This document shows positions 5,910 to 52,473 of a stretch of DNA of 64,000 nt, piece after piece. Under the pieces are notes generated by a model. It ran no database searches and was not told the origin of the DNA. It saw only the letters and a list, made by a program, of their open reading frames with translations. Numbering within the stretch: the first letter of the stretch is position 1; every line of letters starts with the position of its first letter. A program made the position numbers and the translations under genes. Source of the DNA: an uncultured Collinsella sp. (GTDB taxonomy: Bacteria; Actinomycetota; Coriobacteriia; Coriobacteriales; Coriobacteriaceae); the NCBI GenBank assembly GCA_900754275.1, contig CAAECF010000109.1, forward strand, positions 674 to 64,673, read 5' to 3'.

Positions 5910-7108
5910 TCCATCACGAGCAATCGTTTGTAGACATCGAGGCCCTTGAGTAGGATTTCCTCGTCAAAGAGCATGGTATCGGTATGCAGAGCGCTCGTGG
6001 CATAGGCGGGGCAGCCATCCGAATCGCTCGGGTTTTCTTGACCCTCCGGCACGCCCGTGCCCAGCAAGAAGAACACGCCCGGCAGATGACGCTGATAGAA
6101 CGCGAAATCCTCGGCGATTAGCAGTGGCTCGTCCACAAGTTGCAGCTCGGACAAGGCAGGCGCAATGTGGGCGAACAGCTCGGGGTCGTTATCGACCGGC
6201 GGATAGCCCTCGGCAAAGTCGAGGTCGTACGTGCAGCCTGTTGCGGCGCAGGCCTCGTCCAACACGCGGCGCACGCCCTCGCGCGCACGGTCGAACATAC
6301 CGTCCGTAAACACGCGCAGGCTGCCAGCCACATGGGCCTCCCCCGCCACCGCATTGCAGACGGTGCCGGCCTGCAGCAGGCCGAACTTACCAATGCAGGG
6401 CTCGTCGGCACCCAACTCGTCCATGAGCTCGCGCTCGGAAACCAAGAACTTGGCCGCTGCCAGCGCGGCATCATGCGATTCCTCGACTGGAACGCCGTAG
6501 GTCTTGGCGATATGGATGCTCGTGCCATGGATATGAATGTGCGTCTCACTTGAGCGCGCCAGCAGCGGACCGGAACAGCTCGCCAACGTGCCGGCGGGCA
6601 AATCGGGCCATACGTGGAAGCCGAAGATGCGATCCGCCCCGTAGCGCTCGAATACGCCGCTCTCACACACCGTCTTGGCGCCACCGGTCGTTTCCTCGGC
6701 CGGCTGAAACACAAAGAGCACGTTGCGCTTGATGGCACCCGGCTGCTCACGAATCGTGCGATCGACATAAGTCGCGGCGGCAAGCACCATGGCCATGTGT
6801 CCATCGTGCCCGCAAGCATGCATCTTGCCGGGATGGGTCGAAGCGAACGCTGCCCCCGTTGCCTCGGCAATGGGCAGCGCATCCATATCGGCGCGAATCG
6901 CCGTGGCATGCGCGGCGCCAACGCCAGCGTCGAAGAAAGCGCAGACGCAGCCGGGGCACGGATGGGTCACCTCGCAGGCGAGCGGAGCGAGCACGCCTTC
7001 AATATAGGCGATAGTCTGCGGAAGATCGAAGTCGAGCTCCGGAATGCGGTGCAAGTCGCGACGATAACGACGGAGTTCTTGGAGCTCGGTCATAGGGATT
7101 CCTTTCAT
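5906..7108 (-). CDS. M20-family amidohydrolase (N-acyl-amino-acid deacylase; candidate N-acetyl-diaminopimelate deacetylase)
   Basis: HACGHDGH metal-binding motif and M20D architecture, 400 aa. The deacetylase role is inferred from the neighbouring dapH pathway. Confidence 0.75.
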   Translation of the reverse strand: MKGIPMTELQELRRYRRDLHRIPELDFDLPQTIAYIEGVLAPLACEVTHPCPGCVCAFFDAGVGAAHATAIRADMDALPIAEATGAAFASTHPGKMHACGHDGHMAMVLAAATYVDRTIREQPGAIKRNVLFVFQPAEETTGGAKTVCESGVFERYGADRIFGFHVWPDLPAGTLASCSGPLLARSSETHIHIHGTSIHIAKTYGVPVEESHDAALAAAKFLVSERELMDELGADEPCIGKFGLLQAGTVCNAVAGEAHVAGSLRVFTDGMFDRAREGVRRVLDEACAATGCTYDLDFAEGYPPVDNDPELFAHIAPALSELQLVDEPLLIAEDFAFYQRHLPGVFFLLGTGVPEGQENPSDSDGCPAYATSALHTDTMLFDEEILLKGLDVYKRLLVME

Positions 7109-11275: not shown

Positions 11276-11278
11276 TAG

Positions 11279-11306
11279 TTACGGCGTTTTACCAAACGCC
11301 GTAACG
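11279..11306. other. perfect 12-bp stem hairpin (GTTACGGCGTTT/AAACGCCGTAAC) immediately after dapH; no U-tract
   Basis: Seen directly in the sequence. Confidence 0.5.
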
Positions 11307-11459
11307 GCCCGACGCTGCAAACGCCCCTAAGCGGCAATCTGACGTTCAATCGTCGGTCGCGTACCGAAGTACGCTTCCCTCCTCTTTCACGTCACCTTGC
11401 TCGCTTAGGGGCGTTTTCGCTGACGTATGCTCGACCTGCAACGTAATTCAGCCCCAAGT

Positions 11460-31764: not shown

Positions 31765-31990
31765 GGTCAAAAAACGTCAAATATGAGTACTGCTAGCGAA
31801 ATGGATACATTACTTTGAGCTTTACGACCACCAGAATAATCTACGATTGTCCATTAACTAACACTTTTACAGTCATTCCTCCTGCATTTTCGCAAGTTTA
31901 AACCCCTCCAAACGCTTAAATCACGTCTGAAGGGGTCAATTATGCTGCGACTAAATTAGTCACAGTACTCATATTTGGCATTTTTTGACC
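31765..31990. mobile_element. MITE-like element: 28-bp terminal inverted repeats flanking about 170 bp of AT-rich non-coding DNA
   Basis: Left GGTCAAAAAACGTCAAATATGAGTACTG (31765-31792) and right CAGTACTCATATTTGGCATTTTTTGACC (31963-31990) are reverse complements with 2 mismatches. The interior is AT-rich with no ORF. Confidence 0.45.
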
Positions 31991-32036
31991 ACCGAGTCAC
32001 AGGGAGGCGCTAATGCAGCTCCCTGAGCCCGCTCGG

Positions 32037-35351: not shown

Positions 35352-35572
35352 GCTGGGCCTCCTTGTTCAGGACCGACAACCAATCCGTGGGTTCACGCGA
35401 AAAACCACGTTCAATGTACGCCCGATACGCAAGGGCAGCGTCCTCATTCCGACAAGCGGTATGAAATTAGCCTTAAAAGTATATTCATGGACAGCGAATG
35501 GCGCCGCACGCGGATGCCGACAGCAAGACATCTCCCCCTCTCAATACACCCTCATGCCCATTCAAAATAGCA

Positions 35573-35664
35573 AGGGGCCCGTATCCCAACGGATACGGGC
35601 CCCTTTCGGCCATGACCTATCTCAGCAACAAAGACTACTTGCGGTGAGCGCGGTAGAACTCGAT
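35573..35664. repeat. attL-like direct repeat: copy of the pgi terminator hairpin plus 32-bp identical core (last 10 codons and stop of pgi)
   Basis: GACTACTTGCGGTGAGCGCGGTAGAACTCGAT (35633-35664) is identical to 39137-39168. The hairpin GGGGCCCGtATCCcaacGGATaCGGGCCCC matches the one at 39075-39106. Confidence 0.6.
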
Positions 35665-38997: not shown

Positions 38998-39074
38998 GCG
39001 CAGGGTTCTCGCAGCGCGCGGCGCCCCGGCGATGTTCCGCAAGGGCCGTGCGCCCCGGGACCACGGCAAAGCAA

Positions 39075-39168
39075 AGGGGCCCGCATCCGATAGGATACGG
39101 GCCCCTGACTATAAGGCGCGATGCGTTAACAGCAGCGACTACTTGCGGTGAGCGCGGTAGAACTCGAT
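39075..39168. repeat. attR-like direct repeat contiguous with the intact pgi 3' end (terminator hairpin plus 32-bp core)
   Basis: See the 35573-35664 feature. Confidence 0.6.
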
Positions 39169-48827: not shown

Positions 48828-49694
48828 TTACTGCTGCAATGACCTTAATAGTCTAATTTCAGCTGCATAACCTGCAAGTTCGTTCGGAGTCTCCAAAATA
48901 AACGGCAGCGAACGCAAGTGGCCATTCGATACAATATTCTGTATAACCTGCATACCGCCGCCAAACTCTTCACCACCCAGGTAGCCCTTACCGATGCACT
49001 CGTGGCGGTCCTTATGGGCGCCGCAGGGATTCTTGGAGTCATTGATGTGTACGGCGCGCAGGCGCTCGATACCCACCACACGATCGAACTCGTCAAGCAC
49101 ACCGTCAAGATCGTGGACGATGTCATAGCCGGCGCCATTCACATGGCAGGTGTCTAGGCAAACGCCCAGCTTGGCCGACAGCTCGGGGCGTTTGCCGGCA
49201 ACACCCTCAATGATGAGCGCCAGTTCCTCAAAGCTGCGGCCCACCTCGGTGCCCTTGCCCGACATGGTCTCGAGCAGCACCGTCGTCTGCTGGCCCTCAA
49301 ACATCACCTGACACAGGGCGTCGACAATCATCTGAATGCCGGCGTCGGAGCCCTGCCCCACATGCGCACCGGGATGGAAGTTGTAGTAGTTGCCGGGCAG
49401 CGCCTCCATGCGCCGCAGGTCCTCTGCCATAGCCTCCAAGGCGAACTCGCGCGCCCGCTCTTTGGCAGAACAGGGGTTGTAGGTATACGGGGCATGCGCC
49501 ACCAGCGGTCCAAAGTCGTTTTGCGACATAAGCTCGCGCAGAGCCGCCACGTCATCCATGTCAAGTTCTTTTGCCTTGCCACCGCGCGGGTTGCGCGTAA
49601 AGAACGCAAAGGTATTGGCGCCAATGGACAACGCCGTCTCCCCCATTGCCCGATAGCCCTTCGTCGTCGAAAGATGACACCCGATCGTCAGCAT
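48828..49694 (-). CDS. nfo: endonuclease IV (apurinic/apyrimidinic endonuclease)
   Basis: Nfo metal-ligand motifs ([31 protein letters not shown]). GAGGAGGGAG RBS before the Met at 49694. Confidence 0.85.
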
Positions 49695-49712
49695 CTCCAG
49701 CTCCCTCCTCAT

Positions 49713-49790
49713 CAGTTGCGGTGAAATACGGTCTATTGGTGCCCTATTTTGGCGCAAACAGACCGTATTCCACCGCAAGTTATAAAAGGG
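49713..49790 (-). promoter_or_regulatory. conserved about 75-nt leader hairpin element, copy 1 (5' UTR of nfo)
   Basis: TTATAACTTGCGGTGGAATA-[CGGTCT...AGACCG]-TATTTCACCGCAACTGA, immediately upstream of the RBS. Confidence 0.5.
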
Positions 49791-49847
49791 GCATCAGGGG
49801 CAAAGGCCTCCAAGGCATTCCAGGCGCTGGCGCCATGCCCCCACGCA

Positions 49848-50840
49848 CTAAAGTTTCAAGCGAATCGCATCGATAATGCGCGCGCAGCGCTGCGTGGCGG
49901 CAAGGGGCATGACGGGACTCTCGAGTTTCCCCGCCCGGATGAGCTGGGTCGCATGCTGGATTTCGCCGTAGAAATCATCGATCTCAAACGGGGCATTTAT
50001 TTCGAGCGTTCGACCGTCGGAATACTTCACATGGGCGAGCTCGGGGCGATGGAGACGCTCGATTTCCAACGAGCCTCGCTCACAGACAATCGTTAAGCGG
50101 CTTTCATATGTTGCTTTGCCGTCGCACACCATATGAATGGGTATACCGCCGACGCTCATACGGATCTCGTCGGCCCAATCGACGCGGCCGCCTGATACGT
50201 CACGCCAGCGAACTTCACGGGATGAAACCTCGCACGCGCCCGCGAGCAAATCCTCAAACCAACCGACCGCATAGCAGCCCATGTCATATAGACAGCCGCC
50301 CTGCAACGAATCAAGCAGATAGCCCGAAGGAGGCTCGCCGTAATCGAGCTTTTGCACGCTTTCAATCGAGACAATACGGCCAAGCTCACCCGACGCAAGC
50401 AAGTCCTTCACGCGAGTGCGCATCGGGCAAAACCGATTCTTCATCGCCTCCATAAACAGCACGCCGCGCTCACGAGAGGTGGAGGCAATCGAGAGAGCCT
50501 CTTCCTCACTCAAAACGGCCGGCTTTTCGCACAGCACGGCCTTTCCCGCGCGCAGTGCCCGACAGACCCAATGCGCATGCATGCCATGTGGAAGAGCCAA
50601 GTAGATTGCGTCGACATCGGGGTCGGCAATCAGCGCATCATAAGCCACATCGCCGCTATCGTCAGCCGTGGCATAACTGTGCGCGGCATCAATCGAAAAC
50701 GCCCTGCAAAACTCCTCAACATGCGAAGGAGTGCGGCCGGCGGCAGCCACAAGCCGTGCCCCGTCCACCTCCTTGAGCGACGATGCAAATCGATGCGAAA
50801 TGTGTCCAGCGCCCAAAACGCCCCAACAAACCTCACGCAA
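49848..50840 (-). CDS. Gfo/Idh/MocA-family NAD(P)-dependent oxidoreductase
   Basis: N-terminal WGVLGAGHISHRF Rossmann motif and EKP motif (VLCEKPAV). Start is probably a TTG near 50840; ambiguous. Confidence 0.65.
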   Translation of the reverse strand: MREVCWGVLGAGHISHRFASSLKEVDGARLVAAAGRTPSHVEEFCRAFSIDAAHSYATADDSGDVAYDALIADPDVDAIYLALPHGMHAHWVCRALRAGKAVLCEKPAVLSEEEALSIASTSRERGVLFMEAMKNRFCPMRTRVKDLLASGELGRIVSIESVQKLDYGEPPSGYLLDSLQGGCLYDMGCYAVGWFEDLLAGACEVSSREVRWRDVSGGRVDWADEIRMSVGGIPIHMVCDGKATYESRLTIVCERGSLEIERLHRPELAHVKYSDGRTLEINAPFEIDDFYGEIQHATQLIRAGKLESPVMPLAATQRCARIIDAIRLKL

Positions 50841-50880
50841 ATCATCACATGAATCCCGATGACCCGCGACAGCCCCCTTC

Positions 50881-50960
50881 AGTTGCGGTGAAATAGTTCC
50901 TGTTTGGCCCCTATTCTGCCGCAAACAGGAACTATTCCACCGCAAGTTATAAAAGGGTCA
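50881..50960 (-). promoter_or_regulatory. conserved leader hairpin element, copy 2 (5' UTR of the Gfo/Idh/MocA gene)
   Basis: Flanks identical to copy 1; the internal stem has compensatory changes (GTTCCT...AGGAAC). Confidence 0.5.
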
Positions 50961-52166
50961 TGAGGAGCGCGTTTTGCCGAAGGCCTTAAGCACCGCCGTC
51001 ACGGGACCAGGCTGGAAACGTCGGCGCACATCGTCGAGACGCTCGGGAATATCGATGTGCTGTGGGCAGTGGCGCGCGCATTTGCCGCACTTGACGCAAT
51101 TGCTCACGAGCTTGGGCTCGCTCGTGCGCACCGCACTCGCCGTAAAGTATTGCGACAGCCCCGTAAACCAGCTGTGCGCATAGCTCGCGTTGTAGGCGGC
51201 AAAGCAGCCGGGAATGTTGATACCCTTGGGGCATGGCATGCAGTAGCCGCATCCCGTGCAGGGCACACGGTTCGATTTCTCAAACTCCATCAACACGCGC
51301 GCAATCGTGTCGAGCTGGTTGGCAGTCATCGAATTCGGCAACGCGAGGTCTGCCAGTGACGAATTCTCATCCACCTGCGCGATATCGGTCATACCCGAAA
51401 GCAGCATCGTCACCTGAGGATGATTCCACACCCACGAAAGACCCCAGGCGGCAGGAGTGCGCAAATGCGGGTCACGGGCACTATCGAGCACAGCGCGGGC
51501 CCGTGGCGGCAGCTTGCCCGCTAAACGCCCGCCCAGCAGCGGCTCCATCACAAAAACCGCGAGCCCGCGCTCCGCAGCCGCCATGAGTCCTGCCGTTCCC
51601 GCTTGGTAACGCTCGCCGGCATAGTTGTACTGTATCTGGCAAAAATCCCAGTCATATGCGTCAAGCATCGTCAGGAAATCCACCGCGCTGCCGTGGTACG
51701 AAAAACCAATCTGGCGAATGCGCCCCGCCGCCTTTTGACACGCGATCCAGTCCTCAATGCCCAATGCCACCACACGTTCCCACTGGGCGGGCGAGGTAAT
51801 GTTATGCATGAGGTAATAGTCGATATGGTCGGTCCGCAGGCGCCGCAGTTGCTCATCGAAGAACCGGTCGAAATCCTCCGCGCACTTGCACGAAGCATGC
51901 GGCAACTTGGTCGCCAGCAACACCCGGTCACGCAGCCCCAAGCGCTCAAGCGAGGCGCCCACGCACGCCTCGTTACCGGGATAGAGATACGCGGTGTCCA
52001 GATAATTAATCCCCTGCTCCACCGCACGGGAAATGATGGCATCGGCTGTCTTCGCATCCGGACGTCCCGGCGCACCGGGAAACCTCATGCAGCCCAGACC
52101 CAACGCCGAGATACGGTTGCCGCTTTTGGGGTCAACGCGATATTGCACGGCCCCTCCCTTCGCCAT
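50958..52166 (-). CDS. aldo/keto reductase with C-terminal 4Fe-4S ferredoxin-type Cys clusters
   Basis: AKR N-terminus (ISALGLGCMRF, YLDTAYLYPGNE) plus C-terminal CTGCGYCMPCP and CVKCGKCARHCP motifs. Confidence 0.7.
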   Translation of the reverse strand: MAKGGAVQYRVDPKSGNRISALGLGCMRFPGAPGRPDAKTADAIISRAVEQGINYLDTAYLYPGNEACVGASLERLGLRDRVLLATKLPHASCKCAEDFDRFFDEQLRRLRTDHIDYYLMHNITSPAQWERVVALGIEDWIACQKAAGRIRQIGFSYHGSAVDFLTMLDAYDWDFCQIQYNYAGERYQAGTAGLMAAAERGLAVFVMEPLLGGRLAGKLPPRARAVLDSARDPHLRTPAAWGLSWVWNHPQVTMLLSGMTDIAQVDENSSLADLALPNSMTANQLDTIARVLMEFEKSNRVPCTGCGYCMPCPKGINIPGCFAAYNASYAHSWFTGLSQYFTASAVRTSEPKLVSNCVKCGKCARHCPQHIDIPERLDDVRRRFQPGPVTAVLKAFGKTRSS

Positions 52167-52473
52167 CAGCGCCCCGGCAAGGCGAAACACAATGGTCACG
52201 CAGCCGAAACATCGTGGAATCGCAATCGAGAACGTATCGTAACGCAGCAGAAATCGAGCTGTCACGGCACCGCTTTAACATCAGCAAAAAGCCCGATGAA
52301 AGGAGCCGGACATGACCACGCGCATGTCTTTGCGGTCTGCCCTGCAGCGTAGCGTCCAGGCAAACGTTTCTTTTTTATAACAGCCGCCCCGCGCACCCAC
52401 CAATCACCCTGGCAGCATACAATCCATCAGGCGCCCCTTACGCGGGCGCCTTTTACATGGGGAGATGATTCAC

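Follow-up and report, generated by a model that had tools for sequence, protein, structure and literature searches.

Several kinds of small, non-coding palindromic repeat are dispersed between the genes of bacteria. The ERIC/IRU, RUP and BOX elements are imperfect palindromes of ~85–130 bp that are strictly intergenic, occur in either orientation and have low to moderate copy numbers; ERIC elements often lie in transcribed regions by gene ends, and are stable at orthologous sites across related species. REP, BIME and REPIN elements are extragenic, form hairpins, lie preferentially after stop codons and between convergent genes, and act as recombination substrates, and REPs within ~15 nt of a stop codon affect expression of the upstream gene. 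Here we describe a repeat that shares these properties and is present twice on the minus strand of a 64,000-nt stretch of DNA from an uncultured Collinsella sp. (contig CAAECF010000109.1, positions 674–64,673; this whole stretch is called the window), once upstream of nfo and once upstream of a Gfo/Idh/MocA oxidoreductase gene. We consider it likely that both copies are members of a Collinsella-restricted, dispersed family of intergenic palindromic repeats of ~85 bp, and that the four compensated differences between them separate subfamilies rather than reflect the adaptation of a leader RNA.

49703..49791 (about), minus strand: repeat copy 1, between the oxidoreductase gene and nfo, delimited by sequence, fold and covariance model
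49718–49776, minus strand: core of copy 1, with inner stem CGGTCT/AGACCG
50873..50957 (about), minus strand: repeat copy 2, directly 3' of the stop codon of an aldo/keto reductase gene, delimited by sequence, fold and covariance model
50885–50943, minus strand: core of copy 2, with inner stem GTTCCT/AGGAAC

The repeat has the general properties of dispersed intergenic palindromes, being found at many unrelated sites, extragenic and hairpin-forming, and we regard it as a new family of the known REP/ERIC/MITE-like kind, MITEs being miniature inverted-repeat transposable elements. It shows no sequence similarity to ERIC/IRU elements, its core arms are much more uniform than its interior, and its Collinsella host is an actinobacterium (Coriobacteriia). 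As in the mixed repeat clusters known as BIMEs in enterobacteria, it clusters with a second repeat family at shared hot spots, but its unit is one palindrome of ~85 nt starting with AAGTTGCGG and not a doublet of short palindromes of 20–40 nt. It also differs from REPs and REPINs in lacking a 5' GTAG-type tetranucleotide and a palindrome inside the arm, and in having tens of copies rather than hundreds, whilst the sole Y1 (IS200-like) transposase gene seen, in the one genome fragment examined, is not flanked by the repeat as a RAYT gene would be. With the Correia elements of Neisseria, which are MITEs, it shares being small, non-coding, palindromic from end to end and dispersed between genes; those elements can lend expression signals to their neighbours, as this one possibly does in supplying the Shine-Dalgarno sequence of nfo. 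Unlike in MITEs, conservation peaks in the inner arms and not at the termini, and no parent insertion sequence with matching ends was found in the 1.4 Mb of Collinsella DNA searched.

Family extent, consensus and conserved pairing

On the minus strand copy 1 reads TTATAACTTGCGGTGGAATA-CGGTCT-GTTTGCG-CCAAAATAGGGCACCAAT-AGACCG-TATTTCACCGCAACTGA-TGAGGAGGG, within a wider layout of CCCC-TTTTAT-AACTT-core(GCGGTGGAATA CGGTCT ... AGACCG TATTTCACCGC)-AACTG-ATGAGGAGGG. The flanks TTATAACTTGCGGTGGAATA ... TATTTCACCGCAACTGA are the same in both copies, and all four stem positions at which the copies differ are compensated on the partner strand, exactly as the sequence-only reading had described. A repeat finder joined the two copies in a 95-nt family of the window at 80% identity. 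Each copy folds into one long hairpin, copy 1 at -52.2 kcal/mol (z-score -7.8) and copy 2 at -50.3 kcal/mol (z-score -7.5), with none of 200 shuffled sequences as stable in either case. In the fold, the C-rich run CCCCUUUU on the 5' side of the hairpin pairs with a purine-rich run on its 3' side (GAGGAGGG in copy 1).

Scanning for the pattern GCGGTGRAATA-N25-55-TATTYCACCGC in one genome per species gave at least 119 matching loci, nearly all from Collinsella or Coriobacteriaceae. These hold at least 135 copies with unrelated flanks, which clustering by flank similarity places at ~45 sites. The family consensus runs CCCC-WWW-AT, AAGTT, GCGGTGGAATA, a 6-nt inner stem, a variable tip, the partner inner stem, TATTTCACCGC, AACTT and AT-WWW-GGGG. 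In base profiles and all-against-all comparison, the arms continue into AAGTT and AACT(T/G), which reach 90% conservation or more although they lie outside the search pattern; beyond them only the weak CCCC-WWW-AT / AT-WWW-GGGG pattern is left, and the likeness of non-orthologous copies ends 6–13 nt outside the core. One matching contig (L076, CAVGCW010000044.1) comes from a metagenome-assembled genome (MAG) labelled Alloprevotella, but its flanks are orthologous to Collinsella loci, so that contamination during binning is the probable cause.

With a covariance model of 69 oriented copies, only the two known copies were found in the 64-kb window, at 85.3 bits (E=1.6e-19) for copy 1 and 82.6 bits (E=7.9e-19) for copy 2, and in 733 kb of fetched loci the model added only ~6 further, diverged copies. 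In an annotated C. aerofaciens record it found no copy over 250 kb, and two over another 40 kb that had been picked for its BLAST matches; BLAST places the repeat at six positions in the whole 900-kb record. That record (NZ_OY725717.1) is filed as C. aerofaciens 'plasmid 6', yet it carries ribosomal protein genes, recA, rho and tRNA-ligase genes and is therefore chromosomal sequence. Its match was accordingly set aside as evidence of plasmid carriage. No phage match was obtained in looking for carriage by phages, and three matches to 'viral contigs' were rejected because these carry housekeeping genes such as PolA and YaaA.

The sequence-only reading had not recognised the element as any named RNA family, and the Rfam 15 scan agrees, with no match to it at the gathering threshold (Collinsella-1 included). 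The sole match in the window is a lysine riboswitch elsewhere, and at E<=10 the region gives only sub-threshold look-alikes of microRNA hairpins. No published description of the repeat was found, searches with the arm sequences included, although coverage of the literature was incomplete and an earlier description is possible.

Each of the 134 folded copies forms a single hairpin, averaging 27 bp and -41.9 kcal/mol. In the 69-sequence alignment 83.7% of cells are paired, compared with 31–44% when the partners are slid, and each of four inner-stem pairs has 16–34 double changes. The inner stem occurs in discrete variants, GTTCCT/AGGAAC, CGGACT/AGTCCG, GGGAYT/AGTCCC and the nfo-site CGGTCT/AGACCG, and chimeric, mismatched combinations are also present. 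A true compensated step is seen family-wide between CGGACT/AGTCCG and the nfo-site CGGTCT/AGACCG, with site 2 holding the mismatched intermediate CGGTCT/AGTCCG. Ascertainment through the search pattern explains part of the invariance of the arms in the 69-copy alignment. Among the diverged copies found only by the model, two have fully compensated arm changes, GTGATATA/TATATCAC in L094 and GTGAGATA/TATCTCAC in L200, and others have changes of the wobble type. The tip or loop is the most variable part, the conserved positions being paired. From the discrete stem variants and the compensated arm changes it follows that base pairing is maintained across the family, and the earlier proposal of selection for a folded structure is thus borne out.

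The origin of the four differences in the window can be followed in 80 metagenome loci that encode the same oxidoreductase at 91–100% identity and were not chosen for the element. All 80 carry both copies, and the element varies far less than the intergenic DNA beside it. The nfo site has only two alleles, CGGTCT/AGACCG in 51 loci and GTTCCT/AGGAAC in ~20, or roughly one strain in four, with no half-converted stems, and every single-base variant there is uncompensated. In the two fully checked loci (L103 and L195), the GTTCCT allele at the nfo site also comes with the loop of the neighbouring copy. Two block alleles without intermediates indicate that gene conversion, with the copy 1.2 kb away as donor, exchanged the stem-loop as a block, and in this way neighbouring copies homogenise each other. 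We conclude that the four compensated differences represent two pre-existing subfamilies and not stepwise evolution at these loci. The covariation that had been proposed thus holds as pairing kept family-wide, but not as a history of compensation at the two window copies.

Some loci hold decayed copies. In L155 and L172 the copy upstream of the oxidoreductase gene contains a 17-nt tandem duplication (TGTGATGGAATAGTTCC twice, at ~2876–2910), and in the lineage of these two loci, as well as in L153 and L196, the arms of this copy have degenerated and the nfo copy is intact. Recurrent 1-nt deletions that hit the same motifs in both copies of the L121, L195 and L172 contigs (CACCGC to CACGC, GGCG to GCG) resemble systematic errors of sequencing or assembly more than real variation.

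Genomic position, recombination and spread

Genes were called with a home-made program based on codon usage, and all 135 copies fall outside them. The site contexts (n=66) comprise 29 convergent, 35 co-directional and 2 divergent cases, whereas in DNA of the same kind the background frequencies are 11–17% convergent, 63–77% co-directional and 12–21% divergent (chi-square p ~1e-9 to 1e-16, which is indicative only, as the site contexts are not fully independent). The core typically lies 7–30 nt after a stop codon, and in several convergent pairs the element makes up the whole intergenic region, as in the 93 nt between YafQ toxin and DegV genes of one record's own annotation. At site 1 the convergent spacing is 17 nt, the core and 17 nt, and at site 27 the outer distances are 14 and 13 nt. 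The next start codon downstream is 5–400 nt away (median 108). Genes beside the copies are functionally unrelated, and many are ordinary housekeeping genes.

The repeat has an intrinsic polarity, in that 73 of the 135 copies have a G-T instead of a Watson-Crick pair at one arm position. In co-directional site contexts this polarity runs with transcription in 21 cases and against it in 14, and among firmly oriented sites the numbers are 8 and 8. It bears no relation to local GC skew, which is positive at 11 of 26 sites. Insertion into pre-existing hairpins was considered and rejected, since the outer flanks show no site-specific complementarity: native flank pairs score no better than swapped ones.

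Pairs of direct copies enclose a single gene at many loci, and each such gene is closely trailed by its own copy. These bracketed genes often have poor codon-usage scores, the oxidoreductase gene of the window being one example. In four presence/absence polymorphisms the boundaries coincide exactly with copies of the repeat:

TOTE-type primase-helicase: two copies in L071; single copy in L005, L010, L031, L047 and L017
164-aa hypothetical protein: two copies in L052; single copy in L042 and L055
AAA_14/DUF4143 ATPase: two copies in L059; single copy in L074
HipA-like protein: two copies in L107; single copy in L089

The single elements are chimeras of the left and right copy, and the crossover point differs between L042 and L055. 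Variable crossover points indicate general homologous recombination between direct repeats and not a recombinase cutting at one fixed position, and recombination of this kind removes or adds the bracketed genes. The TOTE-type gene of L071 (3185–6169, minus strand) encodes 994 aa with AEP-TOTE primase and ResIII/DEAD helicase domains, as in a conflict or defence system, and is inserted between the YafQ toxin and DegV genes in one Collinsella MAG only, with two copies bracketing it.

The repeat probably spread by a non-autonomous MITE- or REP-like process. Among several candidate empty sites, one, from L114 and L097, proved to be an occupied, rearranged site, and another, site 12 in C. aerofaciens, holds a different repeat. 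The palindrome itself takes in the dinucleotides flanking the element, which are NA/NA. In 1.4 Mb of Collinsella DNA, a limited search space, the solo arms are truncated copies or chance matches. The Y1 transposase gene mentioned above (Y1_Tnp; L205 20955–21767, minus strand; NZ_OY725717.1 220955–221767) is a lone IS200-like gene of 270 aa with a weak MarR-like C-terminal match, lies between suf and nifU genes without a TnpB partner, and is a candidate domesticated (RAYT-like) transposase.

A number of observations weigh against a dispersed repeat family as the full account. Conservation wanes gradually outward with no sharp edge, and the copy number of ~15–25 per genome by extrapolation is low for a classical REP family. 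BLAST with flank pairs over all fetched loci and 290 kb of C. aerofaciens recovered no empty site, so neither a target-site duplication nor a sharp element boundary can be demonstrated. No transposase or other partner enzyme was seen beside copies or solo arms in the 1.4 Mb of Collinsella DNA, and the lone Y1 gene has no element in its flanks. Lastly, G-U pairs exceed A-C mismatches on the strand that carries the arm G-T (96 to 49; 44 to 17 when weighted by site), and folding of this strand is more stable by 5 kcal/mol on average. The bias may point to a strand-specific folded form, which membership of a repeat family leaves unaccounted for, although shared ancestry of the subfamilies inflates the excess and it is treated as a hint only.

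As for function, the repeat is probably a 3'-end hairpin. Once transcribed, it would provide a 3'-end structure for the upstream gene, acting as a barrier to 3' exonucleases or as a weak terminator independent of a U-tract, and the hairpins of the window would sit in intercistronic RNA, where the outer stem of copy 1 would occlude the Shine-Dalgarno sequence of nfo. Such roles at the RNA level are putative, and the scarcity of T-runs on transcription-facing sides (discussed below) is a further point against them. If the hairpins do shape mRNA 3' ends or occlude ribosome-binding sites, the expression of dozens of genes per genome would be affected.

Alternative explanations

Much of the positional evidence could also be read as pointing to factor-independent bidirectional terminators or 3'-end stabilisers, with this as the primary selected function and the repeat nature secondary. 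The copies follow stop codons at 7–30 nt as intrinsic terminators do, many convergent pairs have the element as essentially their whole intergenic region, the hairpins are very stable, and T-runs of at least 4 follow the hairpin slightly more often on sides entered by transcription (14%) than on others (4%, p=0.013). The U-tract of an intrinsic terminator is, however, missing from the other 86% of transcription-facing sides, whilst the same genomes use canonical terminators with a GC stem and T-run, and a 27-bp stem is much longer than usual. The window copies lie between co-directional genes with no predicted internal promoter, where full termination would silence nfo, and a scan for consensus promoters and terminators called nothing at either copy. 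A terminator role also leaves the 75-nt sequence identity across unrelated sites unexplained. Termination is plausible as a description of what the element does, but as its primary function we think it possible rather than probable. The sequence-only reading had instead proposed a cis-regulatory RNA leader (riboswitch-like, thermosensor or processing site) for nfo and the oxidoreductase gene. Both window copies are indeed sense-oriented upstream of these genes, and in copy 1 the purine-rich run GAGGAGGG, the 3' half of the outer stem, lies 8 nt before the nfo ATG, pairs with CCCCUUUU in the fold and is probably the Shine-Dalgarno sequence of nfo. The nfo Shine-Dalgarno region is conserved in 76 orthologous loci, and sites 2, 0, 15 and 40 also have a start codon close after the G-rich tail. 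The ribosome-binding site that had been placed after each element is thus plausible for nfo; at the oxidoreductase gene, the likely TTG start (50840) is ~33 nt past the G-run of copy 2, a distance at which the G-run does not serve as a ribosome-binding site. The leader fails at the family level, where at least 135 copies occur at ~45 unrelated sites in both orientations, with and against transcription about equally, mostly downstream of stop codons and in convergent gene pairs (29 of 66 site contexts), and with only two in divergent, promoter-bearing regions. Starts downstream lie at widely varying distances before unrelated genes, variation is greatest in the tip, the expected place of a ligand pocket, no Rfam model matches, and the conserved unpaired pocket nucleotides of a riboswitch are lacking. 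A short repeat scattered in contexts other than 5' regions is the very result that the sequence-only reading had named as counting against itself, and with the leader refuted for the family we regard it as scarcely credible for the two genes. A supposed nfo leader RNA is thereby removed as a false lead.

The bracketed genes might instead suggest an integron-like gene-cassette system new to science, in which a host recombinase reads the folded, G-U-favoured strand and inserts or excises single defence and toxin-antitoxin genes, each with its own 3' copy. Integron attC sites resemble the repeat in being imperfect palindromes of similar size after single genes, with stems conserved in pairing, a variable centre and bracketed genes that are gained and lost. 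The single genes between direct copies, the four copy-bounded polymorphisms with their accessory genes and the one strand favoured for G-U pairing all fit such a system. The attC boxes, however, read R''(RYYYAAC)...R'(GTTRRRY), whereas the arms here are AAGTT...AACTT, that is GTT...AAC in reverse order to AAC...GTT. Crossover is fixed in R' in attC and varies here (L042 vs L055), as is characteristic of general homologous recombination; neither an integrase beside the copies nor an array beside an attI site was noticed; and polarity is unrelated to GC skew, with many copies flanking ordinary housekeeping genes. A cassette system is therefore very unlikely. We hold a double-stranded operator or cruciform bound by a dimeric protein, such as a global regulator, a nucleoid protein or a Rex- or ParB-like half-site reader, to be similarly improbable. 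Its appeal lies in the arms of 11–16 bp, which are far more conserved than the interior and whose motif GTGAAATA/TATTTCAC we take to resemble Rex and parS half-sites. Yet the arms covary (A-T to T-A in L094, and to G-C in L200), so that pairing is kept and the sequence that a protein would read is changed; the half-sites are 37 bp apart, in an order opposite to that of parS and Rex boxes, and the sites avoid promoter regions. The leader, the attC-like site and the operator each fail at least one direct test, and a dispersed palindromic repeat family is the explanation that we prefer.

Collinsella is a very common and very diverse genus of the human gut, and its annotators now have a defined repeat family and a covariance model that works for it; otherwise the repeat would keep being flagged as a candidate structured RNA. 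The family also offers a small, clean example of hairpin-preserving evolution, of concerted evolution of neighbouring copies and of repeat-mediated gain and loss of accessory genes, the bracketed genes including a TOTE-type conflict gene and a HipA-like gene.

Neighbouring genes and other repeats

The genes around the two copies are co-directional, in the order reductase, copy 2, oxidoreductase, copy 1 and nfo:

48828..49694, minus strand: nfo-like gene (endonuclease IV / deoxyribonuclease IV), Pfam AP_endonuc_2, E=1.4e-48
49848..50840, minus strand: Gfo/Idh/MocA oxidoreductase gene, Pfam GFO_IDH_MocA and GFO_IDH_MocA_C3
50958..52199, minus strand: aldo/keto reductase gene with a C-terminal 4Fe-4S dicluster domain, Pfam Aldo_ket_red and Fer4_9

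The Pfam matches bear out the earlier naming of nfo and the oxidoreductase gene. The nfo-like gene starts with an ATG at 49694, downstream of copy 1, and its protein is 100% identical to one named deoxyribonuclease IV of Collinsella aerofaciens in the sources. The search with this protein gave only sequences of 98–100% identity. The oxidoreductase gene, bracketed by copies 1 and 2 in direct orientation, has a codon score of 42, compared with 179 for a neighbour of similar length. Copy 2 begins directly after the aldo/keto reductase TGA (50960–50958), which is 14 nt from its core. Open reading frames at 49778–49692 and 50945–50838 (minus strand) leave both copies open and in phase with the gene downstream. 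TTG codons within the element open the nfo and oxidoreductase frames, so that mechanical lists of open reading frames stretch these genes into the repeat, and in-frame TTGs inside the copies could mislead the annotation of start codons.

The second palindromic repeat family in Collinsella, GGTAGTCATTGGGGACGTTCTT...AAGAACGTCCCCAAYGACTACC, is found in L200 (23400–23530 and 13684–13740) and in flanks at sites 13 and 15 (e.g., L023 and L038). It is this repeat that replaces the studied element at site 12 in C. aerofaciens, and elsewhere it directly abuts copies. A stretch of ~150–170 nt, recurring at 73–88% identity in the window (11277–11439), L205 (42196–42345 and 24017–24192) and L200 (16728–16874 and 23262–23441), flanks copies at sites 0 and 9 and may belong to the second family or represent a third. 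A further short repeat forms a 35-nt inverted pair upstream of the TOTE-type gene in L071 (6378–6412 / 6573–6607) and occurs also in L102 (260–474), with a relative at 80% identity in the window (31938–32023).

The lysine riboswitch of the window (RF00168; 7240–7408, plus strand) scores 79.3 bits, well over its gathering score, and is unrelated to the repeat. A canonical-looking terminator hairpin, AAGGGGCCCGTATCC...GGATACGGGCCCCT, occurs in two copies 3.5 kb apart (window 35572–35664 and 39074–39168). At ~20 nt from each lies a 39-nt repeat, with 92% identity between the two loci, which suggests a duplicated gene 3' end.

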